DNA of 63,865 bases, the filler included, from an uncultured Methanosarcinales archaeon (lineage in GTDB: Archaea; Nanobdellota; Nanobdellia; Woesearchaeales; JAGLXL01): assembly GCA_964472345.1 (NCBI GenBank). It is 4 parts of 4 records of this genome, joined end to end, with 100 filler letters (N's around TTAATTAATTAA, not from the genome) between each part and the next. Parts side by side here need not be neighbours in the genome. Positions count along the whole stretch, not along the records: positions 1 to 20,045 come from CAYYLB010000014.1; 3 more parts are not named here. One strand, 5' to 3'. The translations under genes and the position numbers were made by a program. Below the pieces are notes generated by a model. That model saw nothing but the letters and a program-made list of their open reading frames with translations, did not search any database and was not told where the DNA came from. Shown here piece after piece: positions 1 to 20,145 of the stretch; position 1 is the first letter of the stretch; every line of letters starts with the position of its first letter.

Positions 1-74
1 TTTCATAACCCCAATAAACTTATCGTAGGGAAATAGTTTCGGGATAACACAGTTTAACGAACTGCCACTCCCTC

Positions 75-293
75 GGCGTTATTGAAAAGTCCGTAAGCGC
101 CACCGGAATGCGGGCGAGCAGGTCTGCCGAACGGAGTGAGCGCAGATAGAGAACGGAGCGCAGCGGAGTGAACGTGCGTCAACTTCAGTCGCGCCAGGGA
201 CTGTTTTCCACCGGAGAGGGAAGCAGAACTGCTCCGATAAAACCGGCGAGAAAACGGCGAGCTCGCAGGCGCAGGGAACTTTTCAATAACGCC
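75..293. mobile_element. MITE-like non-autonomous element, copy 1 (219 bp)
   Basis: Terminal inverted repeats GGCGTTATTGAAAAGT (75-90) / ACTTTTCAATAACGCC (278-293); flanked by 8-bp direct repeat ACTCCCTC (67-74, 294-301); same TIRs recur at 13277-13409. Confidence 0.85.
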
Positions 294-301
294 ACTCCCT
301 C

Positions 302-316
302 AAAACATTCTTAAAC
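302..316 (+). promoter_or_regulatory. BRE/TATA promoter of the 338 gene (probably leaderless)
   Basis: AAAACATTCTTAAAC ending about 22 nt upstream of ATG 338. Confidence 0.55.
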
Positions 317-337
317 AGTGCACGCTTCCGTTGAAGG

Positions 338-3073
338 ATGCAAAAGAGGGCGCTTGCCATTCTCCTTTCCCTTCTTTTGGTCGTCTTCCTGGGCAGCTGC
401 CTGCCAGCCGGCGAGCAGGCGGGTCAGGAGCAGGCACGGCCGGAGCCCACGCTTCCCGCGGAAGGGGATGCAGCACCGGCAGGAGATGGGCAGGGCGTGC
501 CGCAGTCGCCGGCACAAGGGCAGGATGCGCTGCAGGAAGCGCCATCCGGCATGGTGTTTGAGGTGGCCATCCCTGAAAACACCCCTGCAGGCGACACGGT
601 CTGGATCTATGTGATGCAGATTCCCCATAAAATGGAAAAAATAAAAGATTTCACCCACACCATAACTCTGAATGAAACTCAACTCTTCAACCAAGGATAC
701 ATCCCGATAGGAGGTGATACTATCCGTTACCGCTATTCTCGAAACAGATATGATTTTCATACTGCAGAGTACCTTGTCCCAACGCCTGAAGAGCCTGACC
801 GGGACACGAACAATTACTTCTGGACCGCACATGGAAGAGACAGTGATTACGAACCGGGCAAGATTCAAAAAGACACCATAGAAAGGTGGAGATGGTTTCC
901 CAAAGAGGGAACGATTACCAAAACAACTCATTTAGAACCCTCAGGAAACTTCTTGCCCCGGGTAAATAACCTTGAGTTCAGGTCAGGGCAAACAATCGAA
1001 GACCTCTATGTGCCTGCTTTTCATGATTTTTTTGATTCTATCGCCCACCATGTGAAAGAGCAAGGGTACACCTGGGTAGAAATTGATCCGCCATGGCAAT
1101 GGACAGAAGTGGATAATCTTCCCAAAGTAGCTAATGATTGGGAGAATAACCCAAACTATCCTGATGACGGGACATTCCTTGAGGAAGTGCAGGCATATAA
1201 GAAACAAGGCCTCAAGGTGCTTATCGCCCCGCAACTGTGCTGCAGCCCCCTCGATACAGCGAACAGGACCGAAGGATGGTGGAGGACATATTTTAATGAG
1301 ACGGAACGCTTTTTGCTGCATTTTGCATCCCTTGCAGAACAGGCAGATGCAGACGCTTTTTCCTATGCTGTCGGAACGTGGGAGACGGAAGAAGCGGCAA
1401 TAGACATCGAGCGGGAATGGAGGCGGATCTTCGGCAGCATACGGAATGTTTTCAGCGGGGAAGTTGGCCAGATGGTCTGGGTGCTTGGACCCGATGCCAG
1501 TCCTTCTCCTGTCCCCATACCGCAGCCAGAATCAGTTCCATGGGCCGGCATGCTTGATTTCATTCTTGTCGCCAGCGATTTCCCGCTCTCGATGAAGGAT
1601 GATCCAACCAACGAAGAACTGAAGAAAGGCGCAGACGCGGTTCTGGATGGCATGAAAGTATTCTATGACACATACAAGAAGCCAATCCTGATCAGGAACG
1701 GATATTTCAATGTCAGAAATTCCTGGAAAGGCCAGTCTTTCTATTCCATCAGTTCCATCCCCTGGATTGGCGATCCGGAAGCTGTACTCAAAGAAAGTAA
1801 ATATGAATTTGACACCCACGACCATGCCCGGGTTGTTCATGCATATTTCCGTGCAATCGCAGAAAGGCCCTGGGCCATCGGCTATTTCCATTTCGGCTAC
1901 ACGCATTGGGAGAATCCGCTATCGCCGTGGATGTCCATCCGGGGAAAGCCCGCAGAAGACATCTGGAGGAAATGGAATGGGGTGATTTATGAAAAGGAAG
2001 AGCTTTCTTTCGAAGAGCAGGTCTGGCGCAGGCGCATTGAAGCGGCCATGGCACCCGTCCCCTGCCCCGACGTGCCGAAGCCGGACTATCCCGCTTCTTA
2101 CTACCAAGGCCCGCTGATTGACACGCACCTTCATATCCCGGCTCTTCCTGACTGGTCGCCGGAGGAGGACAGCTTACCCACGGACCAGGGACCCGAAGGC
2201 AGGTTCGGCGGTCCGCAGGCACTGCTCGGCTGGAACGTGAAGATGGGCGGGATTGCGTGCACGCTGAAGCGCGAAGGCACCCGGAAAAATTTCGCGTTCT
2301 TTCCGGTGTATCAGGAGATGCCGGAACAGCTGCTGGAGGTGGCAGACCGCACCCTGCAGCAGCATCCCGCGCTCTTTACCCCGTTCATCATGTCTTCGGG
2401 CAATGATAACGAGCCGGGCGGTTTCCCGACCGTAGATGCGGCAGCGCTTCGGAGCATGCTTGCAGTTCATCCCGGATTGTTCCGCGGCTATGGTGAGATC
2501 GGGCTCTATGCGCGCGAAGGCGGCTCCGATGAGCTTCCCCCCGACTCACCGAGGCTTCAGGAGATCTATCCCATCCTGCGGCAACAGAAACTCGCCGCCT
2601 ATTTTCACCTCGGCGAGGGGCACAAAGGCAGCTTCAAAGAAGTTTTGCGGCAATATCCCGCCATCAGCTTCATCTGGCACGGAGACCAGCTGTCGGTGGA
2701 GGAGGTCGAAGAGATCCTCGATGCGCATCCCAATGCCTACTACGGGATTGACGCATTCTGGGGCGGTGATCGGGACCTCTTCCTGATGTTTGTGGGAAAG
2801 AGCAAGGAAGCGTATCTGCAGGCGCTGGATGAGCGGTTTGACAGGGTCCTCCGGCGTGCGGTACGGGACTGGAAAGATGCCATCGAGAGACATCCCGACC
2901 AGTTCCTCTGGGGGATCGACCGGGGGGATGCCGTCTGGAACTATGACCGCGACGTCGGCCAGATGCAGGTGAATCTTGCGAGAGCTTTCATCGGCCAGCT
3001 TGATCCGGCGGTGCAGGAGAAGTTCGCGTACAAGAATGCGGAGCGCGTGGTTACAGCGGCGGGGAACGGGTGA
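338..3073 (+). CDS. Lipoprotein: CBM20-like N-terminal module, TIM-barrel glycoside hydrolase-like (GH113-like) domain and C-terminal amidohydrolase-family metallohydrolase
   Basis: Signal peptide ending FLGSC; FEVAIPENTPAGDTVWI; WRRIFGSIRNVFSGEV and SIRGKPAEDIW typical of GH113-like barrels; IDTHLH, GYGEIG, FHLG, IWHG and WGIDRG amidohydrolase motifs. Confidence 0.6.
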   Translation: MQKRALAILLSLLLVVFLGSCLPAGEQAGQEQARPEPTLPAEGDAAPAGDGQGVPQSPAQGQDALQEAPSGMVFEVAIPENTPAGDTVWIYVMQIPHKMEKIKDFTHTITLNETQLFNQGYIPIGGDTIRYRYSRNRYDFHTAEYLVPTPEEPDRDTNNYFWTAHGRDSDYEPGKIQKDTIERWRWFPKEGTITKTTHLEPSGNFLPRVNNLEFRSGQTIEDLYVPAFHDFFDSIAHHVKEQGYTWVEIDPPWQWTEVDNLPKVANDWENNPNYPDDGTFLEEVQAYKKQGLKVLIAPQLCCSPLDTANRTEGWWRTYFNETERFLLHFASLAEQADADAFSYAVGTWETEEAAIDIEREWRRIFGSIRNVFSGEVGQMVWVLGPDASPSPVPIPQPESVPWAGMLDFILVASDFPLSMKDDPTNEELKKGADAVLDGMKVFYDTYKKPILIRNGYFNVRNSWKGQSFYSISSIPWIGDPEAVLKESKYEFDTHDHARVVHAYFRAIAERPWAIGYFHFGYTHWENPLSPWMSIRGKPAEDIWRKWNGVIYEKEELSFEEQVWRRRIEAAMAPVPCPDVPKPDYPASYYQGPLIDTHLHIPALPDWSPEEDSLPTDQGPEGRFGGPQALLGWNVKMGGIACTLKREGTRKNFAFFPVYQEMPEQLLEVADRTLQQHPALFTPFIMSSGNDNEPGGFPTVDAAALRSMLAVHPGLFRGYGEIGLYAREGGSDELPPDSPRLQEIYPILRQQKLAAYFHLGEGHKGSFKEVLRQYPAISFIWHGDQLSVEEVEEILDAHPNAYYGIDAFWGGDRDLFLMFVGKSKEAYLQALDERFDRVLRRAVRDWKDAIERHPDQFLWGIDRGDAVWNYDRDVGQMQVNLARAFIGQLDPAVQEKFAYKNAERVVTAAGNG

Positions 3074-3168
3074 GCCCGCGCCGCCGCCTTCCGGGCTAGC
3101 GCCAGTGAGAGGATTTCACCGGGGCGTTCAACATCACCTTTTTAACCAGCCGTCCGCGTCCAAGCACG

Positions 3169-3582
3169 ATGGGCCTGGCGCCGCACGAAAAGAAGGATCT
3201 CGGAATCATCGCAGGAATCTCCGCCTTCATCGCCGGCCTGTGCTGTTTCGCCCCCGTCGTCTTGGCGCTGCTCGGCCTTGGCCTGGGTCTGCTCGGCATC
3301 TCGTTTGCGCCGGGAGAAGCCGCCTTCGCATCAAATCTCGCGGCCATCCTCTACGGCCAGTACAAGTGGCTCTTCCGCTCCGCAGGCCTCCTCGCGCTGC
3401 TTGTGGGCCTCGTCCTCTCCTTCCGCAGGCGCGGCATCTGCACGCTTGATGATGCAAAGCGCAGCCGCACGAAGATCATCAATCTCACGCTGCTTGCCCT
3501 GCTCAGCGGCATCGTTCTCTACCTCTTCTGGCTCTATGTGGTCGTCGAGTGGCTCGGCATCGGCCTGGGGCTGTGGGGGTAA
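3169..3582 (+). CDS. Small membrane protein, MerT/MerF-like (CC motif in first TM helix)
   Basis: AGLCCFAPVVLALLGLG; three to four hydrophobic helices; RRRGICT. Confidence 0.55.
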   Translation: MGLAPHEKKDLGIIAGISAFIAGLCCFAPVVLALLGLGLGLLGISFAPGEAAFASNLAAILYGQYKWLFRSAGLLALLVGLVLSFRRRGICTLDDAKRSRTKIINLTLLALLSGIVLYLFWLYVVVEWLGIGLGLWG

Positions 3583-3682
3583 GTGATATATGAGGCGATC
3601 ATAAAATCCAGAAAAATAAGCGGAATGTTTAAATATAAGTTCGTTACTAATTGTTATTATTTAATAAGTTTTAGATACAAAA

Positions 3683-3961
3683 ATGCAAGGATTACCGCAA
3701 GAACAGAGGCTTGAACATAGCCCTACGCTGAATACGGTGCTTATGGTGGAGGATACTCTCAAGAATATGGATGAAAGTGTTATCACTGTTGCTGAACTCA
3801 AGCGTAAGCTTCCCCGGAAAGTAAACCACAACACCCTTAAAGCGATTCTGGAATATCTTGAACGGAGCAACAAGATCCTGGTAACGATGAGGGGCATCAC
3901 CTGGATCCACAACCCCCACCCCAACCTACGAAAGGCAATTGCTGAAGGGCTGGAATTATGA
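3683..3961 (+). CDS. Winged-helix protein, probable antitoxin
   Basis: 92 aa HTH-like protein; ATGA overlap with downstream RelE-like gene. Confidence 0.6.
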   Translation: MQGLPQEQRLEHSPTLNTVLMVEDTLKNMDESVITVAELKRKLPRKVNHNTLKAILEYLERSNKILVTMRGITWIHNPHPNLRKAIAEGLEL

Positions 3962-4311
3962 AAATCATTCGCGTAAAATTATCACCTGAGGCGGGAGAGG
4001 TCTATAATCATCTTAACGAAGAGGCTCCAACTTCAAAGACAGAGCGGATGATCCTCAGGGCAGTGAATCAAAAAATAGGGTTAATCAAATCAAATCCCCA
4101 CTATGGAAACCCTATCGCCAAAAACCTTATTCCTGAAGAGTACAAACAGAAATACGGAATAAAGAATCTTTTTCGTGTTGAACTTCCCGCTTTTTGGAGG
4201 ATGCTGTATTCGTTAACGGACGGGGAGAGCGAGGTCGAGATCATTGCATTTGTCCTTGATGTCATGGACCACAAAACCTACGATAAAAAATTTGGGTACC
4301 GGGGAAAATAG
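3958..4311 (+). CDS. RelE/ParE-like toxin
   Basis: NPHYGNPI...NLFRVELPAFWRMLYS...DHKTYDKKFGY, RelE-like layout. Confidence 0.65.
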   Translation: MKIIRVKLSPEAGEVYNHLNEEAPTSKTERMILRAVNQKIGLIKSNPHYGNPIAKNLIPEEYKQKYGIKNLFRVELPAFWRMLYSLTDGESEVEIIAFVLDVMDHKTYDKKFGYRGK

Positions 4312-4446
4312 CACCTCACACTCTCGGCGTCTTTTTTTCTATTCACGGATGACTGCGCTCCTGTGCTTACGGGTTACGCCCCCCATGCCTGACCCAACTC
4401 CATGTGGTGGGAGTAACTTTTTAAATCATGTCCCTCTCTCCGGTTC

Positions 4447-4665
4447 ATGGGAAACCTCGGGCTCCGCTACCTCTGCACCGGCTCCTGCGGCAGCTGTAGA
4501 ACCGAAGAGCAGCAGCAGGCGCAGGGAGCGACAAGCTGCCAGCAGAAAAGCTGCGGGCGCTACGGCCAGCCGCTCAAGAGGCGATGGCTCTGCCCGGACT
4601 GCCAGCTGCTCTTCGTCAGCAACGAGGACCACCGCTGCGTTCCGGAAAGAGCTGAGGCCGCATGA
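4447..4665 (+). CDS. Small Cys-rich putative zinc-binding protein
   Basis: CTGSCGSC, C-x4-C, CPDC, HRC; ATGA overlap with nadM; TATA-like TTTTTAAA upstream. Confidence 0.55.
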   Translation: MGNLGLRYLCTGSCGSCRTEEQQQAQGATSCQQKSCGRYGQPLKRRWLCPDCQLLFVSNEDHRCVPERAEAA

Positions 4666-5162
4666 GCACCGCACTTTTCATCGGCCGCTTCCAGCCGCTG
4701 CACAACGGCCATCTTACTATCCTTAAGCAGCTCTCCTCAAATTATCATATAGTCAAGATCGGCATCGGCAGCGCGCAGTACGGGAACACGCGCGACAACC
4801 CGCTGTCCTCAGCCGAGCGCCGCACGATGCTCCAAAAGACGCTGAAGGAGGCGCGCATCCGCAACACGCGCATCTTTTCCATCCCCGACATCCACGACAA
4901 CGGCCGCTGGGTGGCCCACGTGAAGCGAATCGTAGGCCCGTTTGATGTCGTCCATTCCGGCAATGCGCTCGTGCTGCGGCTGTTCCGGGAAAAGAGCGTC
5001 CCTGTCAGGCGCATCATCGAGATCCAGCCGTACGCATCAACGAGGCTCCGGGCGGCGATTGCCGCGGGCAGGAGCGTCCGCAGCAAGGTTCCCGGTGCCG
5101 TCTGCCGCTATCTGGGATTTATTGATGCGTTTACAAGAATCAGAAAGCTTTGTCACCGCTAA
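4662..5162 (+). CDS. nadM: Nicotinamide-nucleotide adenylyltransferase
   Basis: FIGRFQPLHNGH (HxGH), GIGSAQ, NPLS..ER, STRLR. Confidence 0.9.
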   Translation: MSTALFIGRFQPLHNGHLTILKQLSSNYHIVKIGIGSAQYGNTRDNPLSSAERRTMLQKTLKEARIRNTRIFSIPDIHDNGRWVAHVKRIVGPFDVVHSGNALVLRLFREKSVPVRRIIEIQPYASTRLRAAIAAGRSVRSKVPGAVCRYLGFIDAFTRIRKLCHR

Positions 5163-6157
5163 AGAGAGGAAATCTTCTCACTCCTTCTTTTCTTGAGCAC
5201 CTCCGGGTTCACCACCGACAGCGGCTTCTTCCCTTCGAACACCGCAATGATATTCTTCGCCGCCATCTCAGACATGGCATTTCTCGTTTCGAATGTCGCG
5301 CTGCCGGTATGGGGCACGATAATCACATTGCTCAGCTCCGCGAGCCCCGGCGCCATCTGCGGCTCGAACTCAAAGACATCGAGCGCAGCCCCTGCGATGG
5401 TCTTGTTGCGCAGGGCTTCCACCAGCGCATGCTCATCAACGACCGGACCGCGGCTCGTATTGATCAGGTAGGCGCTCTTCTTCATGATTGCGAGCTCATG
5501 CGCTCCGACAAGATGCCGTGTGGCGGGAGAGAGCGGCACGTGCAGTGTGATCACATCCGAAGTTTTGAGCAGCTTGTCTTTGCCGAGCAGGCGTGCGCCA
5601 AACGCTTTTTCAAAAGCTTCATCAGCGTTGTTGTCAAGATAGAGGATGTCCATGCCAAGCCCACGCGCAATCTCTGCGACACGCTTCCCGATTCTTCCTA
5701 GCCCGATGATCCCAATGGTTTTGCCGCGCATCTCGCTCCCCAGCAGCAGCATCGGCTCCCATCCGTGGTACTTGCCTGTGCGCATGAACTGGTCTGATTC
5801 CACAATGCGCCGGGCGATTGCCAGCAGGAGCCCAATCGTGTGCTCGGCAACCGCATTCGTCAGCACGCATGGCGTATTTGTAACAGGAATCCTGCGCTGT
5901 GTTGCGGCTGCGACATCAATATTATCATAGCCAACGGCATAGTTTGAAATGACCTGTAGCCGAGGATTTGCGTTAATCATATCACGATCAATCTTATCGG
6001 TCAGCAGCGACAGCAGCCCGTCGCACCACCGCACGCCGGCAAGCAGCTCGCCGCGCGCGAGAACCTCTCCCTCAGAAACGCGAACCTCGTAGCCCCGCTT
6101 TTTGAGCAGCTCGATTCCCGCATCCGGAATCTTGCGCGTGACAAATATTTTTTTCAC
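5159..6157 (-). CDS. gyaR: D-2-hydroxyacid dehydrogenase (glyoxylate reductase/D-glycerate dehydrogenase)
   Basis: NYAVGYDNID, GIIGLGRIG, INTSRGPVVDE, LDVFEFEP, PHTGS. Confidence 0.85.
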   Translation of the reverse strand: MKKIFVTRKIPDAGIELLKKRGYEVRVSEGEVLARGELLAGVRWCDGLLSLLTDKIDRDMINANPRLQVISNYAVGYDNIDVAAATQRRIPVTNTPCVLTNAVAEHTIGLLLAIARRIVESDQFMRTGKYHGWEPMLLLGSEMRGKTIGIIGLGRIGKRVAEIARGLGMDILYLDNNADEAFEKAFGARLLGKDKLLKTSDVITLHVPLSPATRHLVGAHELAIMKKSAYLINTSRGPVVDEHALVEALRNKTIAGAALDVFEFEPQMAPGLAELSNVIIVPHTGSATFETRNAMSEMAAKNIIAVFEGKKPLSVVNPEVLKKRRSEKISSL

Positions 6158-6371
6158 TGTTGTTCACCCTCGACTTCGCAGCGGCCGCGAGGCCAGCCTA
6201 GCCAGCCTATAGCGAAGGACATCAATGATCGCCACCTCCGTTTTTCCTTCGAACATCATAAGTGAAAATCTTATATAAATAGGTTGTGCTCACTATAGGC
6301 CTTCACTGCTTCGATCACGCACAGCCCAGCAGACCACAACGCTTAAATAACTTCCTGCCGTTCGCGGCAAG

Positions 6372-7046
6372 GTGAACCGACGCGAGCTTGCACAGCATCT
6401 CGACTTCGCAAACCATCATGCGGACGCCACCGCGGGCGACATCAGGGCCCTCTGTGCAGCCGTTTTGAGATATGGATTTCACAGCGCCTTTGTCAATCAG
6501 CACCACGTCGCGCTCACAAAAAGGCTTCTGCGGGGCAGCGCAGCGGCCGGCACGGTGATAAGCTTTCCCTTGGGGCAGGATGCCGCTGCCGCGAAGGTGG
6601 ACGCTGCGATTCACGCGGCGCGCAGCGGTGCAGACGAGCTTGACATAAGCATGAACGTCGGCCTTTTCAGGGAAAGAAAGTACGCACTCGTTCTCAAGGA
6701 GATGCAACAGGTTGTCCGCGCTGCCAAAAGGATCAAGCCGCGCATCCTTGTCAAATTCATCATCGAAACGGGCTACCTCAGCGACAGCGAAATAAAGAAA
6801 GCATCACAGCTCGTTGTCCAATCAGGAGCAGACTTTGTCAAGACCTGCTCAGGCTACGGCCCTCGCGGCGCCTCCCTCCAGGACGTCAGGCTCATCAAAG
6901 CAGCAATAGGCAACAAAGCAAAAATCAAAGTCGCAGGCGGCATCTCAACGACAGCACAAGCGCTCGCGTTCCTCCAGGCGGGCGCGCACCGCATCGGCAC
7001 CTCCCACGCCCCCCAAATCGTCAAGGGCGCTGCAAGTAAAGAGTAG
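6372..7046 (+). CDS. deoC: Deoxyribose-phosphate aldolase
   Basis: VISFPLG, GADELD, KFIIET, ADFVKTCSG, KVAGGI, RIGTS. Confidence 0.9.
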   Translation: MNRRELAQHLDFANHHADATAGDIRALCAAVLRYGFHSAFVNQHHVALTKRLLRGSAAAGTVISFPLGQDAAAAKVDAAIHAARSGADELDISMNVGLFRERKYALVLKEMQQVVRAAKRIKPRILVKFIIETGYLSDSEIKKASQLVVQSGADFVKTCSGYGPRGASLQDVRLIKAAIGNKAKIKVAGGISTTAQALAFLQAGAHRIGTSHAPQIVKGAASKE

Positions 7047-7111
7047 GACTTCTGCAGTCTGCAGGCGGAGAGTAAACAACAGGAAAACAAGAAAAGAAAA
7101 AAAAGAAATTT

Positions 7112-8395
7112 TTAGTAGTAGGTCTCTTCCTTCTCTTTGCCTTCGGTCTCGCTGCCTTTCATGCGGCTCAGGCCGACAATCAGGCCGACGACGACCAGCA
7201 GCACGACCAGGACAACCAGTCCGATCTGCAGCGCCGGAATCAGTCCGCGGTCGCGCGGTGCGACGACATTCGCCTTCAAGGCGACTTCCTTGAGGGTCTT
7301 GTCAGCGCTCTTCACGCTCACCGTGACAAGCTTCTCGCCCGGTGTCGCGTCCTTGCCCGCGGCGACCTGCACGGACGTTACCTTGGTCTCGCCTGCGCCG
7401 ACGACCAGCACGCTTGAGCTGACGCGCGCGGTTCCCCACTCGCCTGCAGTTGCGCTGACCGTGTAGGTCCTGCTCTCACTGCCTGCGTTGGTGATGGCGA
7501 CCGGGAAGATTGCCTCAGGGCCGCCCGCGACGATGTTCTGGCTTTCAGGTCCGATGGTTATGATTGCCTTTTCCTCAGCCTGCTTGCAGCGGGGGTTTTC
7601 GAGCACCGTGACGGTGAACTCTTCCCGCGCCGTGCGCGAGCTTTCATCATATTCCACAGTGACAAGGGCCGGGTACTGTCCAGGCAGTGCGCACTCAGGA
7701 ATGCGGACAAAGAGCTCCTCGCTCGACTTCTGGTCGTCGCTTTCAAGCTCTTCGACGAAATCGACATCTTTGACGCCGAAGTCATCAAGGCTCAGGGTGA
7801 CCTTGACATCGTCCTGATCCTTCTCGCCCAGGTTGTCAAGGCGGACACGGGCCAGGAGGGATCGGCCGGCCATGACACTGGTGCCGGGATTGAAGGTGAC
7901 ATCATCGATCACGACATTGTGCCGCTTGCCCGTAACTTCGATGGGCACATCAAGGGAGATGCGCTCATTCCGGCGGTCAAGGACATCGATGCGGATGACA
8001 TACACATCAGGATCAATGTTATGGGGGAGCCGCAAGGTCAGCTCTTTCACGTAGGTGTTTCCCGCCTTGACGGTGAATCGCTCGGTCTCGTCGCTGATAT
8101 CATTGTGGTCATCGCCATCGATCTCGGCCCTGACCTCAACTTCGCCATTGGCGAAAGCGTCGAGCTTGACCCTAACGTCGAGCGTGTCCGTCCGATCAAC
8201 ACCGAGAACTTCCCCGGGGCGGAACGTGTCGCCGTTGACCTTTACTTCAACAAAATCGACTGGCACGCTTTGTGCAACTGCACTGAGCGACAGAACGCTC
8301 GCGACCAGCAACGCAACCATTGCAACAATACCAAACTTTTGTATCATGTTCATCTCCCTCCTGATGTTCATGGTTTCGGCACCTATGGTGCCCAT
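7112..8395 (-). CDS. S-layer-like cell-surface protein with Ig-like domains and C-terminal TM anchor
   Basis: Signal peptide (true start probably MNMIQKFG after a GGAGG RBS); beta-rich repeated modules; C-terminal TM helix followed by charged tail ending ETYY. Confidence 0.7.
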   Translation of the reverse strand: MGTIGAETMNIRREMNMIQKFGIVAMVALLVASVLSLSAVAQSVPVDFVEVKVNGDTFRPGEVLGVDRTDTLDVRVKLDAFANGEVEVRAEIDGDDHNDISDETERFTVKAGNTYVKELTLRLPHNIDPDVYVIRIDVLDRRNERISLDVPIEVTGKRHNVVIDDVTFNPGTSVMAGRSLLARVRLDNLGEKDQDDVKVTLSLDDFGVKDVDFVEELESDDQKSSEELFVRIPECALPGQYPALVTVEYDESSRTAREEFTVTVLENPRCKQAEEKAIITIGPESQNIVAGGPEAIFPVAITNAGSESRTYTVSATAGEWGTARVSSSVLVVGAGETKVTSVQVAAGKDATPGEKLVTVSVKSADKTLKEVALKANVVAPRDRGLIPALQIGLVVLVVLLVVVGLIVGLSRMKGSETEGKEKEETYY

Positions 8396-8490
8396 GAATA
8401 GGACTCCACCCCTCTTCTTCCGCGGTGAAAACGCCGCTCCTATATAAATGTTTCGTATTTTTAGTATTATAAAGTAGTTACATACAATTG

Positions 8491-11349
8491 TTATCTTATA
8501 GTAACTACTCTATAGGTGATGTGCGCAAGCTCGTCGTTGCTGGCCGTGATGCGGACGTCGTACTCGCCCGAGGCATCCTCCGGAACATCCAGCAGCACGT
8601 GGCGCGTGAGCTGATCATCTTCGTCGAGGTCAAACGGGCCGACGCTGCGCTGCTCGCCCCAGTCATGCACGGAGACGGTGAGCCGCACGTCCTCGAGATC
8701 GCGCTCGCCGTCGTTCTCAAGGTCGATGCTGATGTCGAGCGTTTCGCCGGGCGCAAGCTGCTCGCCTGCCGGGAACCGGATCTTGCCGAACAGCAGCGCA
8801 AAGCGCTCGCCGTCCTCATCCTCGATGTCCACGGGCTCGCCGCTCACGGTGATTGTGTAAAACTGCGAATCGCTGCCGCCGAAGTTGTCGCGCGCGGAAG
8901 CCTGCACCTGGTACGTGCCAGGCTCCTCAGGCGTCCAGGTGATGAAGCCTGTCTGGCCGTTGATTTCCATCCCTTCAGGAAAGGTGTCCAGGCGGAAGAT
9001 GATTATGTCTCCGACATCGGGGTCAAACGCATCAACATCATAGGTGTAGAGCTCACCGGTCTGCGCGATGGTGACGGGCGCCGAGGTGATGATTGGCGGA
9101 TTGTTCAGGCCATTCACATCGACGGTGTATGTCTGCGTGTCCGCGAGCTGCCCGTCAGTCACGGCAACGGTGACCGTGTGGAGCCCTTGCTGTCCGTCGA
9201 CCGGCACCCAGCTGATGATGCCGAGGAACGGATCAATAGTCATGCCCGCAGGTGCTGTCGGGAGCGAAAAGGTGAGTGCATCGCCGTCGATGTCGAATGC
9301 CTGCACATCATAAGTATATTCTTCGCCGACAAACGCTTTCAGCGGCGGATTGAAGCTGTCGATGCGCGGCGCGTCATTGACCGCGGTTACCGTGACGGTG
9401 AAGCTGTCCGTGGCGCTCAGGCCTGCCTGGTCGCGCACGCTGACGGTGATGACACACTGCCCGTTAAATGCAAGCTGCGGGCGGACGTCGATGTTCGCGT
9501 TCAGGTCCTGCGTGACGCCGCACTCATTGTCAGGCACGGTAAAGACGAGCGCCTGGCGGGGCGTTTCGAGGTCTGAGGCGAAGTTGCGCAGATTGAACGC
9601 GTCGAGCAGCCGCGTGCCTTCCGCGAGCGTGATATCAGGCAGTCCCGCAAGCGTCGGCGCGCTGTTTCCTGAGGCAACATTCACCGTCAGTGTGTCGTCT
9701 GCATCTGCTCCCGACGGATCGGTGACCGTGAATGTGATAGTTCTCGTTGCTGGCGCTGCAGGCGCGGTGAAGGTGACCATGTTGTCCGCGTTGATGCTTA
9801 CCGTGATGCTTCCCGTGCTGCCCGCCGTGATGACAAGCGTTGATTTTGCATCATCAGGATCGGCGATGAACTCATTGAAATCGATCGTTGTGGTGCTTCC
9901 GGCGCTCAGCGTGAGCGGATCAATGGCATCGAGGAAGATGCTCGGATCGCGGTTGTTCGCGCTGAGCTGGACGTTGACAAAGACATCCGCGAGGCCGACC
10001 TGCACCGTTCCCGTGAGCGTCTTGAAGCTCGGGTGCGTGACCATGAACATGTAGGTTCCCGGCGGGATGCTCTGGATCGTCGCTACGCCATTGGCACCGG
10101 TGGTGTTTGTGCTTCCGGAGAGGGTGACCGTCGCCCCGCTGATGGGGCTGTTGCCCTGGGTGGTGACGGTGAAAATCACGTCGCTCCTTTCCGGCGGAAG
10201 GACAAATGTCTCCAGCGTCAGCGTTTCCTCAAGGCTTGGAACAGCGCTGCAGAGGCTGCCCTCGCCCCTTCCGGTGACAAAAATGGTATGGAAGCCTTCC
10301 GTGGTTGGCGTGAAGGTGAATGACTCGACTGATGGCATGTCCGTGTCGCCCGCCGGCAAGGTGACCGTCTGCGTGAAGACGACCTGGCCGAAGGGATCGC
10401 TCTGCCCCCGCCTGACCGTGTAAGTCGCGCGCAGGGGTACCGCCGTCTTCACGAAGTTGTTGTCAGCGAAGTTGCTGATGCGCGTGTAGAATGCCGTGAG
10501 CGGCTCATTGACGATGGGGAACGGGTTGAAGGTGAGGAGATTGTTCAGCACCGCATAGCACTGGTTCTGCGGGCGCGCCTGCAGGACGGTGAACTCCTGC
10601 GAGACAGCAACCTGCTCTGAGGAAGCGCACTGGTCATCGACGACGTTGCTCGTGACCTCTGCGCGGTAGCCCGTGCCTTGCAGCGTGGGCGTCCAGGTGA
10701 ACAGCACCAGCTGCTCCTCATCCATGAAAATGTTCAGGTTTCTCGTCTCCTCATGGACCAGCATGCCCACGGGATCGAAGATGCGCAGCGTGACATCCGT
10801 GCGCGCCGAGTAGTATTCGTCCTTGAACGCCGGCGGCACGAAGAACGGCGGCGTCCCCACGTCGCGGAAAGCCGAGTGCGTCACCGCGTCGAGGAACGCG
10901 CGCAGGTTGATCTGGAGCGGCTCGTTCTGGAAGACGCTGTTGATCGCGAGGAAGTTGTCGACAGGAGCGCGGCAGACAGGGACTTTGGTGAGGGGAACAG
11001 TATAATGGAACGTGAAGCCCGTCCCGAAATCATCGGGGATAACCCCTTCCGTCGGCGCGTAGCCCGGGACGTAAAAGTATGCTGCGTAATCAGTCGGATT
11101 GGGCGTGCCGGGGAACTCGAACGTTACCGTATCGCTCGTGCCGCTGTTGCCTTGGAAGACAGGTGGCTCCAGCACAGAGAAGCACTGGCCATTGTTGTCT
11201 GTACAGGTGAAGATGACGGCCTCGGCTCCCGTCAGCGGAGTGCCTGTTCCCATCTCGGAAAAATGCGCGACTCCGATGTTTCCAGCGAAGACGGACGGCA
11301 GTGCAAGGAGCAGCGCCACCACCAGCGAGAGTGCTTTCATTTTTTTCAC
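8491..11349 (-). CDS. Large secreted adhesin-like protein with cadherin/He_PIG/tandem Ig-like repeats
   Basis: Signal peptide; VNDAPRI, YTYDVQAFDIDGDALTFSL..APAGMTID..GIISW repeated; carboxypeptidase-regulatory-like domain. Confidence 0.75.
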   Translation of the reverse strand: MKKMKALSLVVALLLALPSVFAGNIGVAHFSEMGTGTPLTGAEAVIFTCTDNNGQCFSVLEPPVFQGNSGTSDTVTFEFPGTPNPTDYAAYFYVPGYAPTEGVIPDDFGTGFTFHYTVPLTKVPVCRAPVDNFLAINSVFQNEPLQINLRAFLDAVTHSAFRDVGTPPFFVPPAFKDEYYSARTDVTLRIFDPVGMLVHEETRNLNIFMDEEQLVLFTWTPTLQGTGYRAEVTSNVVDDQCASSEQVAVSQEFTVLQARPQNQCYAVLNNLLTFNPFPIVNEPLTAFYTRISNFADNNFVKTAVPLRATYTVRRGQSDPFGQVVFTQTVTLPAGDTDMPSVESFTFTPTTEGFHTIFVTGRGEGSLCSAVPSLEETLTLETFVLPPERSDVIFTVTTQGNSPISGATVTLSGSTNTTGANGVATIQSIPPGTYMFMVTHPSFKTLTGTVQVGLADVFVNVQLSANNRDPSIFLDAIDPLTLSAGSTTTIDFNEFIADPDDAKSTLVITAGSTGSITVSINADNMVTFTAPAAPATRTITFTVTDPSGADADDTLTVNVASGNSAPTLAGLPDITLAEGTRLLDAFNLRNFASDLETPRQALVFTVPDNECGVTQDLNANIDVRPQLAFNGQCVITVSVRDQAGLSATDSFTVTVTAVNDAPRIDSFNPPLKAFVGEEYTYDVQAFDIDGDALTFSLPTAPAGMTIDPFLGIISWVPVDGQQGLHTVTVAVTDGQLADTQTYTVDVNGLNNPPIITSAPVTIAQTGELYTYDVDAFDPDVGDIIIFRLDTFPEGMEINGQTGFITWTPEEPGTYQVQASARDNFGGSDSQFYTITVSGEPVDIEDEDGERFALLFGKIRFPAGEQLAPGETLDISIDLENDGERDLEDVRLTVSVHDWGEQRSVGPFDLDEDDQLTRHVLLDVPEDASGEYDVRITASNDELAHITYRVVTIR

Positions 11350-11350
11350 C

Positions 11351-12826
11351 TTAAGGTATCACAAATGCAGGGGCGAACGCTGCCGCGGCTTGGCCGCCCG
11401 ATGCTGCTCCTGATGGCGCGAGAGCCGATGCCGCTGCTCCGCCGGCCGCCGCGGTGGCGATGCCTGCGACAAGCCCGCCGACGCTTGCTGCCGAAAGGAG
11501 TGTATGGACCCAAATTGCTGTCTGCTCGCCCTTTGCACGCCAGTTGACCTGGTCATCCGTTGCGCCTTCTTCAAGCGCCTTGACGAGTTTGAGCAACTCC
11601 ATTGGGTTAGCTGCGTTGACTCCCATATATCCCTTTGCTTGTCCGATGCTCAGGAGCTTGCTGAATGGAAGAATATTCCACCACTTCATCAGGCCAGGCT
11701 CCGGAGCGAGCGCGAAGACATCCTGCTCCTCCAAGTCTAAATACCGGAACACTGCATCAGCAACATCCGGAGTAACTCGGCCATTATCTCTCAAAAGCCG
11801 GACTTCATTCCGTAGACCTGCCGTTGACCTGCGGATATCGTAATCAGTGCCATCGGGATCAATGCGAACCTTATACCGGCCGTCCTTCAAAAACTCCTTC
11901 GCCTTCTCCATGGGATCATAACCCACAATAGCACGATGGAGCATGTTATAGATGCCACGCTGGGATTGCTCCTCATACGGGATGTTGCGGCCGATCGCAT
12001 CGAACATCCGAATCATCCTTGCAAGGACTGTCCCTTGTCTATTAAAATCCTCAAGAAGGGTGTTCAGGTAGGCTTTTGCTCCATGCTGTTCATCGGTTTC
12101 ACCATCCTTTTTCGCAAGGGCGGCTCGAAGTGACCCTATATTTTTCTCTATTCCACCCTCACCATTATTACCACTGGAGTAACCGACAAGCGCAAGTTTG
12201 TCGTGGAGCCGCGCCATCGCCCGTCGTGCACTCGCTGCAATAGAGGTATCATAGCTGCGCTCAGCGTCGTTCTTGTGCGCACCTTTTGTTATCTGCCATG
12301 CATAATCAGCGATGAGATGCGGAAGCGCGTTGCAGCCACCACCATCAGTATTTTCAACGAGCGCGTGCATCTCGGCCTGAGCACCCGCGAGCCGCTCGAG
12401 CGTGCTCTTATCATCTGAGCTTAGGTCAAGCGCATTTGCTTGTGAGAGGTCGTATCGTATTTGAAGGGCATCGGGTACCTCTGTCGCTTGTCCCATCCCC
12501 GCAGATACGTCGGTGAGCGTTCGGGCGTCATCAGAGGAAGCGACGGCCTCAAGGTAACTGGGATTGACATCACCAAGGCGAAGGGGTCCTGCACAGCCTG
12601 CTAAATATACTGCTCCGCCGAGTGCTGCTGCTACCGCTGCGTTAAATTCTCTGCGTGTTATTCCTGCTTGTGATGATCCCGCAGAGGCATCCCCACTAGC
12701 AACATAAAGTGCTTGAGCAGGCACTTCAGGAGGCGAAAAATAAGATCTAATCAACCCAAAAAGCCCTTGCCGTGTGTGACCTTCAGTCATGATGGTTTCC
12801 TCCCAAAGACAAACTCTTCTGCTCAC
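11351..12826 (-). CDS. Hypothetical lipoprotein with twin-arginine-like signal
   Basis: ITRREF...AVYLAGC; long ORF; Gly/Ala-rich hydrophobic C-terminus. Confidence 0.55.
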   Translation of the reverse strand: MSRRVCLWEETIMTEGHTRQGLFGLIRSYFSPPEVPAQALYVASGDASAGSSQAGITRREFNAAVAAALGGAVYLAGCAGPLRLGDVNPSYLEAVASSDDARTLTDVSAGMGQATEVPDALQIRYDLSQANALDLSSDDKSTLERLAGAQAEMHALVENTDGGGCNALPHLIADYAWQITKGAHKNDAERSYDTSIAASARRAMARLHDKLALVGYSSGNNGEGGIEKNIGSLRAALAKKDGETDEQHGAKAYLNTLLEDFNRQGTVLARMIRMFDAIGRNIPYEEQSQRGIYNMLHRAIVGYDPMEKAKEFLKDGRYKVRIDPDGTDYDIRRSTAGLRNEVRLLRDNGRVTPDVADAVFRYLDLEEQDVFALAPEPGLMKWWNILPFSKLLSIGQAKGYMGVNAANPMELLKLVKALEEGATDDQVNWRAKGEQTAIWVHTLLSAASVGGLVAGIATAAAGGAAASALAPSGAASGGQAAAAFAPAFVIP

Positions 12827-13110
12827 CCACCCCTTGCTCCTGCCCCGAGTCGCTCCTTCTATTTAAACCTTTCGCATTTGTATCTATCTTATAATAGTGA
12901 CATTATGTAAATAACAGAGAATGGTGACTACGATGGCCTTGCATGAGGTGCCACGCGCGCATGCGTCCCGCACTGTTTCATTTCCAGCCAGCACCCAACC
13001 CACAAGGCGCCGCTCCCGATGCCGGCTCCCGCGATGCCGCGCACCCGTCGTTTCCGCTTCCGTTAACCCCTGCGCTCCCAGGCATCACCGCTCCGCAAAA
13101 AACAAAAGGA

Positions 13111-13230
13111 TGGGGACGCTGCGATTCGAACGCAGATTGGCCGGTATCAACCGCAAGTCTTGTCATCGGCACGCGCCTCATCGCTCCACGACTGGAGCCG
13201 GCCGTACTGGCCAGGTTATACTACGTCCCC
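13111..13230 (-). tRNA. tRNA-Trp(CCA) with 46-nt intron at 37/38 (13146-13191)
   Basis: Acceptor GGGGACG/CGTCCCC-A; anticodon stem GCCGG/CCGGC with CT-CCA-G; T arm CTGCG-TTCGAAT-CGCAG; mature length 74 nt. Confidence 0.92.
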
Positions 13231-13253
13231 ACAGGCAGCAAGAGCGGCAGGCG

Positions 13254-13268
13254 GTTTAAAAACGTTTC
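13254..13268 (-). promoter_or_regulatory. BRE/TATA promoter of tRNA-Trp
   Basis: Minus strand GAAACGTTTTTAAAC ending about 24 nt upstream of the tRNA 5' end. Confidence 0.65.
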
Positions 13269-13276
13269 TTGCTTGT

Positions 13277-13409
13277 GGCGTTATTGAAAAGTTCGCCAAG
13301 GCGGCCAGTGAGCGCTGGCGTAATCAGGATGCCTGCCAGGCTCTAGCTCGACTCGAGTCCGAAGGACAATCAGGTCGAGCGTAGCGAACGGGAACTTTTC
13401 AATAACGCC
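13277..13409. mobile_element. MITE-like non-autonomous element, copy 2 (133 bp)
   Basis: 18-bp perfect TIR GGCGTTATTGAAAAGTTC/GAACTTTTCAATAACGCC; 8-bp TSD TTGCTTGT (13269-13276, 13410-13417). Confidence 0.88.
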
Positions 13410-13624
13410 TTGCTTGTGCGCTGCAGGAGTTTAAGGAGCTCTCTCACCGCATCATAGCCGAGCGAAATTTTCGCTCCCGCCGTTTCCGGAAGCAGGGGAA
13501 GATGCTCCGAGGAAAAGCGCTTGTTTGCCGAGGTCTTTTCGAGCGATTGCGCAAGCTCGATGTCGGGAGTAACCGGTTTTGCCTGTCCGGTTTCCGTGCA
13601 CATGCGCCAATCCATCAGCCCCAC
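13370..13624 (-). pseudogene. Truncated HEPN-like partner of the upstream nucleotidyltransferase
   Basis: N-terminus MDWRMC...PDIELAQSL...LGYDAVRELL resembles archaeal HEPN-type partners; reading frame runs into the MITE. Confidence 0.5.
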
Positions 13625-14130
13625 CTCCGTGATCCCATGAGCAGGGATCCATTGAGGATGTTGTTGCGGAGATGGATGTTTTTGATGTGTTGGAACGAGG
13701 GAAACCAGTGCAGGTTCACCCGGCGCCGCAGCGTTGCTTCGTACGGCTTCAGGTCGAACGGCTTTTTTTGCGGAGTGATGAGCGCAATGTCAATATCTGA
13801 TTTCTCGGCGATTTCTGCCTTCGCGGCGGAGCCGAAGAGGATCACGGTTGGCTGTGCGAACCTCTTCTGGAGCGCTGCGGTTAGCGGCCCGAGCCTCTTT
13901 CTCCAGTAGATGCAGCATAGATCCTTTGCGTCGTCAGTTTCATTGTTTACAGAAAACAGCAGCCTGCCGTAGCGCTGCTCCCTGTGGAGGAGACCTGCCT
14001 TGTGGTATGCGTTGAGCATGCGGGAAGCAGTCGGAGGGCTCACGCCGATCAGCCTTGCATACTCGCGGACGCCGATGCGGCGGGAGCAGTCCTCGAACCA
14101 CGGAGAAAGACTGTTTATTATTTTTAACAT
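13615..14130 (-). CDS. HTH-fused minimal nucleotidyltransferase (MNT antitoxin-like)
   Basis: N-terminal HTH (VREYARLIGVSPPTAS); VILFGSAAK...SDIDIA. Confidence 0.85.
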   Translation of the reverse strand: MLKIINSLSPWFEDCSRRIGVREYARLIGVSPPTASRMLNAYHKAGLLHREQRYGRLLFSVNNETDDAKDLCCIYWRKRLGPLTAALQKRFAQPTVILFGSAAKAEIAEKSDIDIALITPQKKPFDLKPYEATLRRRVNLHWFPSFQHIKNIHLRNNILNGSLLMGSRRWG

Positions 14131-20045: not shown

Positions 20046-20145
20046 NNNNNNNNNNNNNNNNNNNNNNNNNNNNNNNNNNNNNNNNNNNNTTAATTAATTA
20101 ANNNNNNNNNNNNNNNNNNNNNNNNNNNNNNNNNNNNNNNNNNNN
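20046..20145. other. Artificial contig linker
   Basis: 44 N + TTAATTAATTAA + 44 N. Confidence 0.97.

Follow-up and report, generated by a model that had tools for sequence, protein, structure and literature searches.

What decides where a small transposable element settles in a compact archaeal genome? The question is raised by two short, related insertions in the 63,865 nucleotides of DNA analysed here (filler included; hereafter the window), which belong to a 1.26-Mb Woesearchaeota-type DPANN MAG, one of the groundwater archaea of small genome. The initial annotation took the two for copies of one MITE family, whose insertions appear to keep a constant distance upstream of BRE/TATA promoters. 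We examined this proposal in the window, across the genome that contains it and in other genomes.

Two insertions, each abutting a core promoter

The features of the two loci are as follows.

67-74: left TSD copy of MITE 1, ACTCCCTC, 8 bp, same as 294-301
75-293: MITE 1, 219 bp, non-coding, a hairpin closed by its TIRs
75-90 and 278-293: TIRs of MITE 1, GGCGTTATTGAAAAGT, perfect, 16 nt
294-301: right TSD copy of MITE 1, ACTCCCTC
302-317, plus strand: host BRE/TATA core promoter AAAACATTCTTAAACA, abutting the TSD of MITE 1
338-3073, plus strand: gene downstream of MITE 1, apparently leaderless, 911-aa product
13108-13231, minus strand: tRNA-Trp(CCA) with a 46-nt intron, called by ARAGORN with the intron option
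13253-13268, minus strand: host BRE/TATA core promoter GAAACGTTTTTAAACC of tRNA-Trp, abutting the TSD of MITE 2
13269-13276: promoter-side TSD copy of MITE 2, TTGCTTGT
13277-13409: MITE 2, 133 bp, the commonest size class
13277-13292 and 13394-13409: TIRs of MITE 2, perfect
13410-13417: distal TSD copy of MITE 2, TTGCTTGT

Both elements lie where they were first placed, and all four of their terminal inverted repeats (TIRs) are perfect. A TIR pattern search of the window matched 4/4 repeats with 0 mismatches, against 0.31 matches expected by chance, and 0/100 shuffles gave four matches. Fold z-scores were -4.8 for MITE 1 and -6.6 for MITE 2. As originally described, the 8-bp target-site duplications (TSDs) of the two elements differ, and each is followed with zero spacing by one of two near-identical 15-mers, AAAACATTCTTAAAC (302-316) and GAAACGTTTTTAAAC (13268-13254, minus strand), which agree at 12/15 positions. 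These had been placed about 22-24 nt upstream of gene starts; measured from the end of the 15-mer, the intervals are 21 nt to the ATG at 338 and 22 nt to tRNA-Trp.

Scored with the generic-promoter matrix described below, AAAACATTCTTAAACA reaches 14.2 bits and GAAACGTTTTTAAACC 18.5 bits, both at offset 8, and the motif starts 36 nt before the ATG and 37 nt before the tRNA 5' end, respectively. With the right TSD copy of MITE 1, the 8 bases that natively precede the promoter stay where they were. The 911-aa product encoded behind the first promoter has a signal peptide, a GH113 domain and a lipobox-like LGSC, the last read by eye. The gene behind the second is tRNA-Trp, which default ARAGORN and Rfam at gathering score missed in the region searched.

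Promoter offset across the genome

The genome holds 26 end sets with the TIR GGCGTTATTGAAAAGT; there are 21 paired copies of 132-310 bp (a count that leaves out 2 composite pairs) plus partial copies. An exact 8-bp TSD flanks 12/21 of the paired elements, and several others have a near-exact one. With its TIRs and TSDs of constant length, its small, non-coding, multi-copy members and the autonomous partner described below, the family is a MITE family.

A promoter position weight matrix (PWM) was trained solely on 327 MITE-free gene upstreams and gave the consensus GAAAnnTTTATAAA, starting at -37/-36. This matrix scored at least 12 bits at exactly offset 8, directly after the TSD, in 20/26 end sets, and in 2 further sets the peak was one base off (offsets 7 and 9). 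Genome-wide, scores of at least 10 occur at a background of 8.75e-4 per position-strand, and the enrichment of BRE/TATA beyond the TSD corresponds to a binomial P of 1.6e-50. Because BRE/TATA begins right after the 8-bp TSD, 14 nt separate the tip of the TIR from the TATA box. No promoter was found at 4/26 end sets, two with degenerate TIRs (C18, C110) and two consisting of single ends (C114, C67).

The opposite flank behaves differently. Among 18 elements with both flanks, the non-promoter side had a mean PWM score of -22.0, equal to that of random genome sequence (-22.0), and the next ORF on this side lies anywhere from -150 to +562 nt away while the promoter-side offset stays constant. The interior of the MITEs is oriented 8:8 relative to the promoter. 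The offset is fixed, one-sided and free of orientation bias; what had been proposed from two copies is strongly supported and generalises beyond them, and we regard targeted integration as close to certain.

Host origin of the adjoining promoters

The targeted sequences are genuine host promoters. An ATG opening an ORF of at least 86 aa lies 36-39 nt from the motif start in 12/22 targeted promoters, as in leaderless genes, and in 5 more of the 22 a start is found at 24-48 nt; 3 targets are tRNA genes called by ARAGORN and 1 is a tRNA-like sequence recognized by eye. This geometry matches that of the genome's leaderless genes. Targeted and generic promoters show no difference at 15/16 motif positions, degenerate positions included. 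A canonical ORF stands behind 16/22 MITE-adjacent PWM matches versus 522/1240 MITE-free matches, an enrichment that counts as weak evidence because overlapping registers were counted separately.

MITE-free relatives retain the motif at a matching distance from the ATG. For the locus of MITE 1, a MITE-free homologue (L198) carries GAAACATTATTAAACA 37 nt before its ATG, 14/16 identical to the 16-mer AAAACATTCTTAAACA. In the same-genus pair G002 and G007, one G002 gene next to a MITE has an orthologue in G007 whose 16-mer is 12/16 identical and lies at 36 nt. Orthologous sites in this pair were sought at L003, L005, L015, L012 and L007, and only L003 of the five yielded a promoter-side orthologue; L015 and L007 gave no match, and L005 and L012 matched on the non-promoter side alone. 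No true empty-site allele was found in the orthologue comparisons or in groundwater contigs, and for window positions 1-14000 no joint skipping either MITE was present in contigs assembled from a single groundwater study (4 runs), a source from which rare variants can escape. The conserved motifs in MITE-free relatives indicate that the promoter predates the insertion. The proposal passed both refuting tests named in the initial annotation, in that further copies carry the motif and MITE-free homologues have it at an unchanged distance from the ATG.

The autonomous element and its relatives

The autonomous partner of these MITEs was located at loci outside the window's genome (L075/L149). It is 934 bp long, its left TIR is identical to the MITE TIR, and it contains one gene, for a 290-aa DDE transposase whose ORF meets no stop codon within the element, and no accessory gene. 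No transposase gene was found in the window's own assembled genome; a protein search detected homologues in 82/401 sampled genomes. The transposase scores 41.6 bits with Pfam DDE_Tnp_1 (PF01609), for which the cut-off is 23, and has a DDE triad (D117/D188/E240) with the Y-2-R-3-E-6-K signature. Across 10 sequences whose identity falls as low as 27%, D117, D188, E240, Y233, R236 and K247 do not vary.

The initial annotation had named IS1595 as a candidate for the parent family, and here it did not hold: no IS1595 model appeared among the 6 NCBIfam families matched with E <= 1, and the profile matches instead identify an IS5-like DDE_Tnp_1 transposase. The best model is NCBIfam NF033579 (IS5), with 95.8 bits for the protein P0001 and 116.2 bits for a copy from G226; since both scores fall below the cut-off of 140, we file the transposases as an IS5-like, outlying clade. 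Pfam and NCBIfam matches were to DDE_Tnp_1/IS5, IS982, IS1182 and IS4, with no Mutator-type model among them.

The promoter rule is conserved across divergent relatives, and additional copies in other Woesearchaeales genomes also carry the motif at the fixed distance. Scores of at least 12 were obtained for 9/13 elements in G002 and of at least 11 for 7/11 loci in G060, and the single locus in G046 conformed (1/1); two full-length IS copies adjoin promoters scoring 18.4 and 16.3. A TIR scan of genome contigs returned at least 80 loci, mostly single chance matches in bacteria; at further archaeal, Woesearchaeota-type loci the rule held in 5/10 among the matches listed (10 examined, with L040, L080 and L087 left out). 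Relatives with transposases about 30% identical obey it in two near-complete genomes, in 6/6 copies of G226 (9-bp TSD) and 4/4 of G326 (8-bp TSD), so that 10/10 copies comply. Relative to the promoter, the transposase gene of the G226 IS is oriented 3:3. The window's own genome also contains a second MITE family with TIR GGGGTTGGTGCG and a 9-bp TSD, in which the PWM peaks at the matching offset in 12/31 ends and within one base of it in 3 more.

The distance from TIR tip to TATA box is 14 nt with an 8-bp TSD and 15 nt with a 9-bp TSD. The promoter-proximal cut falls at the BRE edge with either stagger, as would be expected if a barrier or landmark fixed on the promoter's side set its position.

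Choice of the insertion site

The MITEs are best explained as non-autonomous derivatives of a ~934-bp Woesearchaeales insertion sequence, whose 290-aa IS5-like DDE transposase is predicted to bind the 16-18-nt TIRs and to integrate with an 8-bp stagger. Promoter-proximal strand transfer would occur at the 5' border of the BRE, leaving 6 bp to the TATA box and ~36-37 bp to the start of transcription/translation; the second cut would lie 8 bp farther upstream. Gap repair would then duplicate these 8 bp and so restore the native upstream flank, leaving core promoter and gene intact; insertion beside a promoter may in this way provide a safe harbour in a genome of 1.26 Mb that is densely filled with genes. 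The landmark that we favour would be a promoter shaped or occupied by TBP/TFB, with bent TATA DNA and with TFB on the BRE acting as downstream boundary. That the transpososome takes its bearings from a TBP/TFB-bound promoter, in a manner resembling the use of TFIIIB by Ty3, is plausible, and our judgement on it is evenly poised. Tentatively, we extend the proposal to a widespread DPANN IS5-like clade that would dock on the TBP/TFB-bound core promoter, the TFB/BRE boundary setting the proximal cut. A predicted complex of G226 transposase with the G226 TFB core and TBP scored 0.00 in a run without controls and weighs neither way.

The transposase could instead act alone, reading the sequence or shape of (R)AAA-NN-TTTWWAWA beside its target with the N-terminal region that binds the TIRs or with some other surface, no host protein being involved; promoters would then be targeted as the main carriers of this motif outside genes. 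Small IS elements usually pick their targets by transposase alone, and direct recognition would suit a 934-bp element lacking an accessory gene. In addition, a BRE-like GAAAAG precedes a TATA-like box in the left TIR of the autonomous IS (12.3 bits in L075, 10.2 bits in L150 and L151), and a TIR-binding transposase may therefore intrinsically favour DNA of this kind. A pyrimidine at motif position 5 in 19/20 targeted promoters (C in 14/20, compared with 31% C in generic promoters) points the same way, with a Fisher p of 0.001 uncorrected, or about 0.02 after correction for 16 positions. This bias was not seen in other genomes, where a manual tally of printed sequences found C in about 7/22, and we rejected a position-5 pyrimidine as a family-wide signature. 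Several further observations argue against recognition by the transposase alone. A symmetric transpososome that reads DNA should leave at least a weak mirrored half-site, yet the other flank is indistinguishable from random sequence. The per-position profile otherwise equals that of generic promoters, and the same spot is used by transposases only 27-33% identical that have other TIRs and another stagger. We consider this explanation possible but doubtful.

Near-random insertion followed by purifying selection, which would keep only copies just outside core promoters, is very improbable. ORFs of 100 aa or more cover at least 84% of the genome, and insertions into genes or promoters would indeed be lost. 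Selection, however, cannot give single-base precision: sites a few bases farther upstream would be equally harmless and yet are unused in 20-22/26 sets, the distance to the next ORF varies widely on the non-promoter side while the promoter offset does not, and precision is equal in the 10/10 IS copies of two other genomes.

Least probable of all, to the point of being negligible, is that element borders were mis-set and the BRE/TATA is part of an element delivering a promoter to its neighbour: outward promoters are carried by many bacterial MITEs, as stated in a review (PMC10969869), and the TIR read outward is itself weakly promoter-like (8.5 bits), but the motif lies outside the direct repeats, differs in sequence between copies, occurs on one side only of a symmetric element and is present at the same ATG distance in MITE-free homologues, and tRNA genes require promoters of their own.

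Relation to known systems

The autonomous element resembles IS5 members in its single ORF, DDE triad with Y-2-R-3-E-6-K, DDE_Tnp_1 domain, short TIRs starting with GG and length of 0.9-1.0 kb. The archaeal ISH1 group of IS5 generates an 8-bp TSD. Known IS5 members prefer short sequences within the duplication (e.g., YTAR), whereas the preference here is for a one-sided 14-bp motif beside it. The element also departs from IS5 in scoring under the NCBIfam equivalog cut-off and in lacking a stop codon inside its borders.

The nearest precedents for the targeting are yeast Ty3 and the bacterial TnGBS/ISLre2 elements. Yeast Ty3 (and Ty1) retrotransposons target Pol III promoters via TFIIIB or Pol III subunits, and archaeal TFB is a homologue of the Brf1/TFIIB part of TFIIIB. 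Ty3 integration takes a fixed position set by a TBP-containing initiation complex, the part predicted here for TBP/TFB, and tRNA genes are among the targets in both systems. Ty3, however, belongs to the LTR retrotransposons and uses an integrase of retroviral type, whereas the family described here is a cut/copy DNA transposon that targets all promoter classes, those of protein genes mostly; dependence on a host factor is demonstrated for Ty3 and proposed here. The Ty3-TFIIIB case is also cited by Guerillot et al. (2014, PMC3942029).

That paper describes the TnGBS ICEs, the ISLre2 family and the ISKra4 group as carriers of bacterial Mutator-like DDE transposases, with integration 15-17 bases upstream of sigmaA promoters, and its authors, drawing the parallel with Ty3, suggest that the initiation machinery is contacted. 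In both cases, prokaryotic DDE elements insert at a fixed short distance upstream of a core promoter (here 14-15 bases upstream of the TATA box) and spare promoter and gene. The differences lie in the promoter, an archaeal BRE/TATA read by TBP/TFB as opposed to sigmaA -35/-10, in the transposase, IS5-like DDE_Tnp_1 as opposed to Mutator-like (p-MULT), and in orientation, which is reported as fixed for TnGBS-type elements and is evenly divided both for our MITEs and for the G226 IS. Most copies here, moreover, are MITEs.

For an archaeal p-MULT 2 element, ISH6, PMC3942029 gives an AT-rich target and only speculates on a promoter preference. It resembles our family in that TATA-like, AT-rich DNA has been suggested to bear on where it inserts, but the ISH6 motif AANATNTT is itself duplicated, whereas here the duplicated 8 bp are not conserved and an intact BRE/TATA adjoins them at fixed phase. 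In papers available without subscription, our search found no archaeal transposon described as targeting promoter edges.

Implications

Targeting of promoter upstreams is a rare strategy, known from a few bacterial Mutator-like elements and from yeast retrotransposons, by which a transposon can increase in number while a host with hardly any spare DNA survives. The same strategy is found here in archaea, in an unrelated IS5-like clade, and at the TBP/TFB-type promoter common to archaea and eukaryotes. Promoter-edge targeting would explain the MITE densities of very small genomes, which are among the highest reported for archaea; PMC11602168 gives 105 MITEs/Mb for one Woesearchaea genome. As an aid to annotation, each element end marks a core promoter in uncultured DPANN genomes; since the mRNAs lack leaders, it also points to the true start codon ~36 nt downstream. 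The family may also become a tool for gene-sparing, promoter-proximal integration in archaea, and it offers a system in which the reading of an initiation complex by a DNA transposase can be put to the test. If docking on TBP/TFB proves true, MITE and IS positions would amount to a free single-base promoter map in uncultured archaea, and targeting of the Ty3/TFIIIB kind would have an archaeal equivalent that arose in a DNA transposon, with integration guided by initiation factors in all three domains.

Two promoter-adjacent elements in the window

The window carries two short members of MITE family 1, each beside a BRE/TATA-like sequence.

Features of the window
75–293: MITE 1, 219 bp, non-coding, perfect 16-nt terminal inverted repeats (TIRs) GGCGTTATTGAAAAGT
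302–316, plus strand: promoter 15-mer AAAACATTCTTAAAC, zero spacing from the MITE 1 duplication
13277–13409: MITE 2, 133 bp, non-coding, perfect 16-nt TIRs GGCGTTATTGAAAAGT
13268–13254, minus strand: promoter 15-mer GAAACGTTTTTAAAC, zero spacing from the MITE 2 duplication
13108–13231, minus strand: tRNA-Trp(CCA) with a 46-nt intron, called by ARAGORN with the intron option only

All four TIR matches in the window are exact (0.31 expected by chance; four reached in 0 of 100 shuffles). Exact 8-bp direct repeats surround both elements and differ in sequence (ACTCCCTC around 75–293, TTGCTTGT around 13277–13409). The initial annotation, which described two elements with common TIRs and different target-site duplications (TSDs), was correct in every detail. 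It had also placed near-identical 15-mers directly against the promoter-side TSD, upstream of gene starts, and this too held. The 15-mers agree at 12 of 15 positions, and each lies beyond one duplication only of its element. The first is separated by 21 nt from the ATG (338) of a downstream 911-aa ORF that has a GH113 domain, and the second by 22 nt from tRNA-Trp(CCA). Default ARAGORN called no tRNA in window positions 1–20045, nor did Rfam at gathering score. The whole assembly yields just 17 tRNAs (ARAGORN, intron option); introns are long or odd in many of them, and some calls are doubtful. The tRNA genes of this host are atypical or poorly assembled.

Positions 1–20045 correspond to one contig (C14) of a 1.26-Mb assembly with 120 contigs and 57% G+C, from an order of well over a hundred families with genomes of roughly 1 Mb. 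The window consists of several concatenated contigs, with N runs at 20046–20145, 40127–40226, 59635–59734, 60571–60580 and 62087–62096. The stretch is present in contigs of groundwater runs, and the same TIR occurs in public Woesearchaeota or Nanoarchaeota MAG records among the matches listed. We take the host to be a DPANN archaeon of Woesearchaeota type. Word depth in contigs of four groundwater runs was about 5–20 times that of neighboring bins at 1–467 and 13077–13543 (X1: 209.7 versus about 10), which fits many element copies in the community, possibly in several organisms.

A fixed offset across the host genome

Crude calling gave 1164 ORFs of at least 100 aa covering 84% of the genome. 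TATA-like hexamers peak between -31 and -29 relative to the first start codon, with 178 in this bin versus about 15–40 in adjacent bins, so most mRNAs appear to be leaderless. A 16-nt promoter matrix was iteratively refined on 1101 upstream regions lacking a TIR within 120 nt, no MITE flank being included. It converged on 327 sites with consensus GAAA-nn-TTTATAAA, of which 188 begin at -39 to -34; genome-wide, the motif start peaks at -37/-36 relative to the start codon.

Scanning the genome for the TIR with up to 3 mismatches gave 58 matches and 23 TIR pairs. Two composite pairs, in which a chance 3-mismatch match was paired with a real TIR, were excluded, leaving 21 paired elements of 132–310 bp. 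Five end sets were added, comprising one element split over the C45/C116 contig ends with overlapping interiors and single ends in C9, C101, C114 and C67, for a total of 26. Flanks were anchored on the TIR tip alone before matrix scoring. A motif of 12–19 bits lay on one side at exactly offset 8 (nucleotides from TIR tip to motif start) in 20 of the 26 sets; in two others the peak was one base away, at offset 7 in C4 (18.4 bits) and at offset 9 in C7 (12.8 bits). No promoter was found in the remaining four: two (C18 and C110) have degenerate TIRs, and two (C114 and C67) are single ends with one visible flank. Scores of at least 10 occur genome-wide at 8.75e-4 per position-strand, giving a binomial P of 1.6e-50 for 20 of 26. 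Independently of the motif definition, the distance from TIR tip to the first T of the TATA box is 14 nt. In 18 elements both flanks are present and the promoter is at offset 8; their other flank scored a mean of -22.0, identical to random genome positions. The fixed offset proposed from two copies thus holds in 20 of the 26 end sets, with two more one base off.

Compared without TIRs, the interiors of 18 of the 21 elements cluster as one family; three, including 75–293, do not. Among 16 promoter-adjacent members of this main family the promoter adjoins either canonical end equally often (8 left, 8 right); the initial annotation had noted differing orientation in its two copies.

A further repeat (…TTCCTAAATTCCCGTTGAAATAGGCATTAGGTTGGTGTG…) occurs at four contig ends (C114:1859–1909 and the starts of C34, C72 and C117), adjoins the solo family-1 TIR in C114, and is probably an unassembled multi-copy element.

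The targeted sequences are genuine, working promoters of the host. In 12 of 22 promoter-adjacent sets the ATG of an ORF of at least 86 aa lies 36–39 nt from the motif start, and 5 more have starts at 24–48 nt. Three precede tRNAs called by ARAGORN (Trp, Gly-GCC and a third whose anticodon call is doubtful); in C9 the downstream sequence looks tRNA-like by eye, and C36 has no nearby gene call. At 15 of 16 motif positions no difference was seen between targeted promoters and 188 generic canonical ones; position 5 is a pyrimidine in 19 of 20 targeted promoters (C in 14 of 20 versus 31% of generic; Fisher p = 0.001, uncorrected). Counts at the final TSD base (C 13, A 5, G 2, T 0) agree with the generic composition at -1 (C 0.43, A 0.35, T 0.03), so the duplication keeps even the weakly conserved first BRE base.

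Replication in related genomes

Of 61 related genomes, the window's own counted, 5 contain the TIR or a variant that differs by one base, GGCGATATTGAAAAGT.

Promoters at offset 8 outside the host assembly
G002 (other genus, same family): 9 of 13 elements at 12 bits or more; 2 more at 8–9.3 bits
G060 (other family): 7 of 11 loci at 11 bits or more
G046: 1 of 1
G007: lone 1-mismatch match, without promoter
Ten further Woesearchaeota-type loci among the matches listed: 5 of 10 with at least one end at 13–20 bits

Background for scores of at least 11, in loci from G002, G060, G226 and G326, was 0.0009–0.004 per position-strand.

The autonomous element and its relatives

An autonomous element with the same TIRs was located at loci L075/L149. 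Its left TIR is exact; the right one, which has 3 mismatches, lies 934 bp away, where the contig ends. The element's single 290-aa ORF continues through the right TIR with no stop codon. The protein matches Pfam DDE_Tnp_1 (41.6 bits, cut-off 23). The IS1595-like parent suggested initially was not supported: the best NCBIfam model is IS5 family NF033579 (95.8 bits, under the cut-off of 140), and no IS1595 model matched. All 10 sequences compared, down to 27% identity, keep D117, D188 and E240 as well as the signature Y233-x2-R236-x3-E240-x6-K247. Of 112 protein clusters matching at E <= 1e-10, the majority lie on 1–2-kb contigs, and most source-named ones are called 'hypothetical protein', three 'transposase'. 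No transposase copy was found in the window's own assembly. Promoters of 18.4 and 16.3 bits lie at offset 8 from the left TIR of copies in G344 and G206 that are 76–80% identical; on the only flank visible for L075 there is no promoter (1.2 bits).

The stopless ORF (L075:2565–3434; L182:671–1507, minus strand) extends beyond the right TIR into the neighboring sequence, and the insertion site thereby sets the C-terminal tail; homologues with near-identical cores are 284–353 aa long. The left TIR overlaps an inward-facing BRE/TATA-like GAAAAGTTAATAAGTG (L075:2509–2524, 12.3 bits), as also at L150:1426–1441 and L151:1437–1452 (10.2 bits). This is presumably the transposase promoter, with a BRE-like GAAAAG falling within the TIR.

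Of 401 genomes sampled from the order, 82 (G320 included) encode homologues at E <= 1e-5. Every copy was inspected in two near-complete genomes. The G226 IS (890 bp, TIR GGCTCTGTCCTAAA, 9-bp TSD, NF033579 116 bits) has a promoter of 14–19 bits at offset 9 in 6 of 6 copies, with the transposase gene oriented 3:3 relative to the promoter. The G326 IS (1030 bp, TIR GGCTCTGTCCGAAAAT, 8-bp TSD) has one of 17–19 bits at offset 8 in 4 of 4. One G226 copy (L183:691–1580) lies between divergent promoters, one of 18.8 bits at offset 8 and one of 14.1 bits at offset 9. These two were originally separated by only about the length of the 9-bp duplication, so that both ends of the copy adjoin BRE/TATA.

A second MITE family in the host genome emerged from a blind search for words that recur, at fixed spacing, upstream of promoters. 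It looks unrelated to the first, with TIRs GGGGTTGGTGCG.../...CGCACCAACCCC, lengths of about 150–270 bp and 9-bp duplications (8/9 match in three elements).

Second-family members, outside the window
C38:10127–10296
C70:3619–3790
C17:14185–14451
C45:3041–3290

For 31 exact ends, the best promoter match of at least 8 bits fell at the 9-bp-TSD position in 12, within one base in 3 and elsewhere in 3, and 13 had none. These counts are about those expected if one of two ends per element adjoins a promoter. The promoter-proximal cut is therefore fixed at the BRE edge for an 8- or a 9-bp stagger.

Discussion

Integration is targeted to the upstream edge of the BRE/TATA, recognition is one-sided, the element ends are interchangeable, and the promoter is left intact. 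The targeting is real, statistically overwhelming and replicated, and reaches the autonomous element and a wider transposase clade. Archaeal TBP/TFB footprints end a few bases upstream of the BRE. We favor, at about even odds, the TBP/TFB-bound, bent promoter as the landmark, on which the transpososome would dock, because the cut falls where these footprints end, the target profile equals that of generic promoters, and transposases of about 30% identity with other TIRs and staggers keep one proximal cut. A symmetric transpososome reading DNA would also be expected to leave a mirrored signal, which is absent. Direct DNA readout by the transposase is a serious rival, which we hold to be possible though not probable: the pyrimidine bias at position 5, the BRE/TATA-like sequence within the autonomous left TIR and an autonomous element without any accessory gene are in its favor, but the opposite flank, at the random level, is against it.

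Selection alone is contradicted by the exactness of the offset; on the non-promoter side the next ORF lies -150 to +562 nt away, so the promoter-side constancy does not come from shortage of room. That the element itself carries the promoter is contradicted by MITE-free relatives, which hold the same promoter at like distance. L198, a metagenomic homologue of the window's gene (60% identity) without TIR, has GAAACATTATTAAACA 37 nt before the ATG, matching the window's AAAACATTCTTAAACA at 36 nt in 14 of 16 positions. In a same-genus comparison (1 usable of 5 tried), the MITE-adjacent G002 promoter TAAAGTTTTATAAACG corresponds to TAAATGTTTATAAGTA in MITE-free G007, both at 36 nt. True filled/empty allele pairs were not found in contigs of the groundwater runs.

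In the literature searched, including a 2026 archaeal IS survey (PMC13343696), a MITE review (PMC10969869) and a MITE census (PMC11602168), archaeal elements that target promoter edges are not reported; the census only notes that MITE density is very high in one Woesearchaea genome. In its way of working, the nearest analogue is the TnGBS/ISLre2/ISKra4 group, bacterial Mutator-like DDE elements that, according to PMC3942029, insert 15–17 bases upstream of sigmaA promoters in fixed orientation, and for which the Ty3-TFIIIB precedent is likewise invoked. The same paper only speculates on a promoter preference of archaeal ISH6 via its AT-rich duplicated target. The likeness lies in the way of working, not in membership: the present elements have an IS5-like transposase, free orientation and an archaeal promoter as target. 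The strategy is known but rare, and these elements are a new archaeal variant of it.
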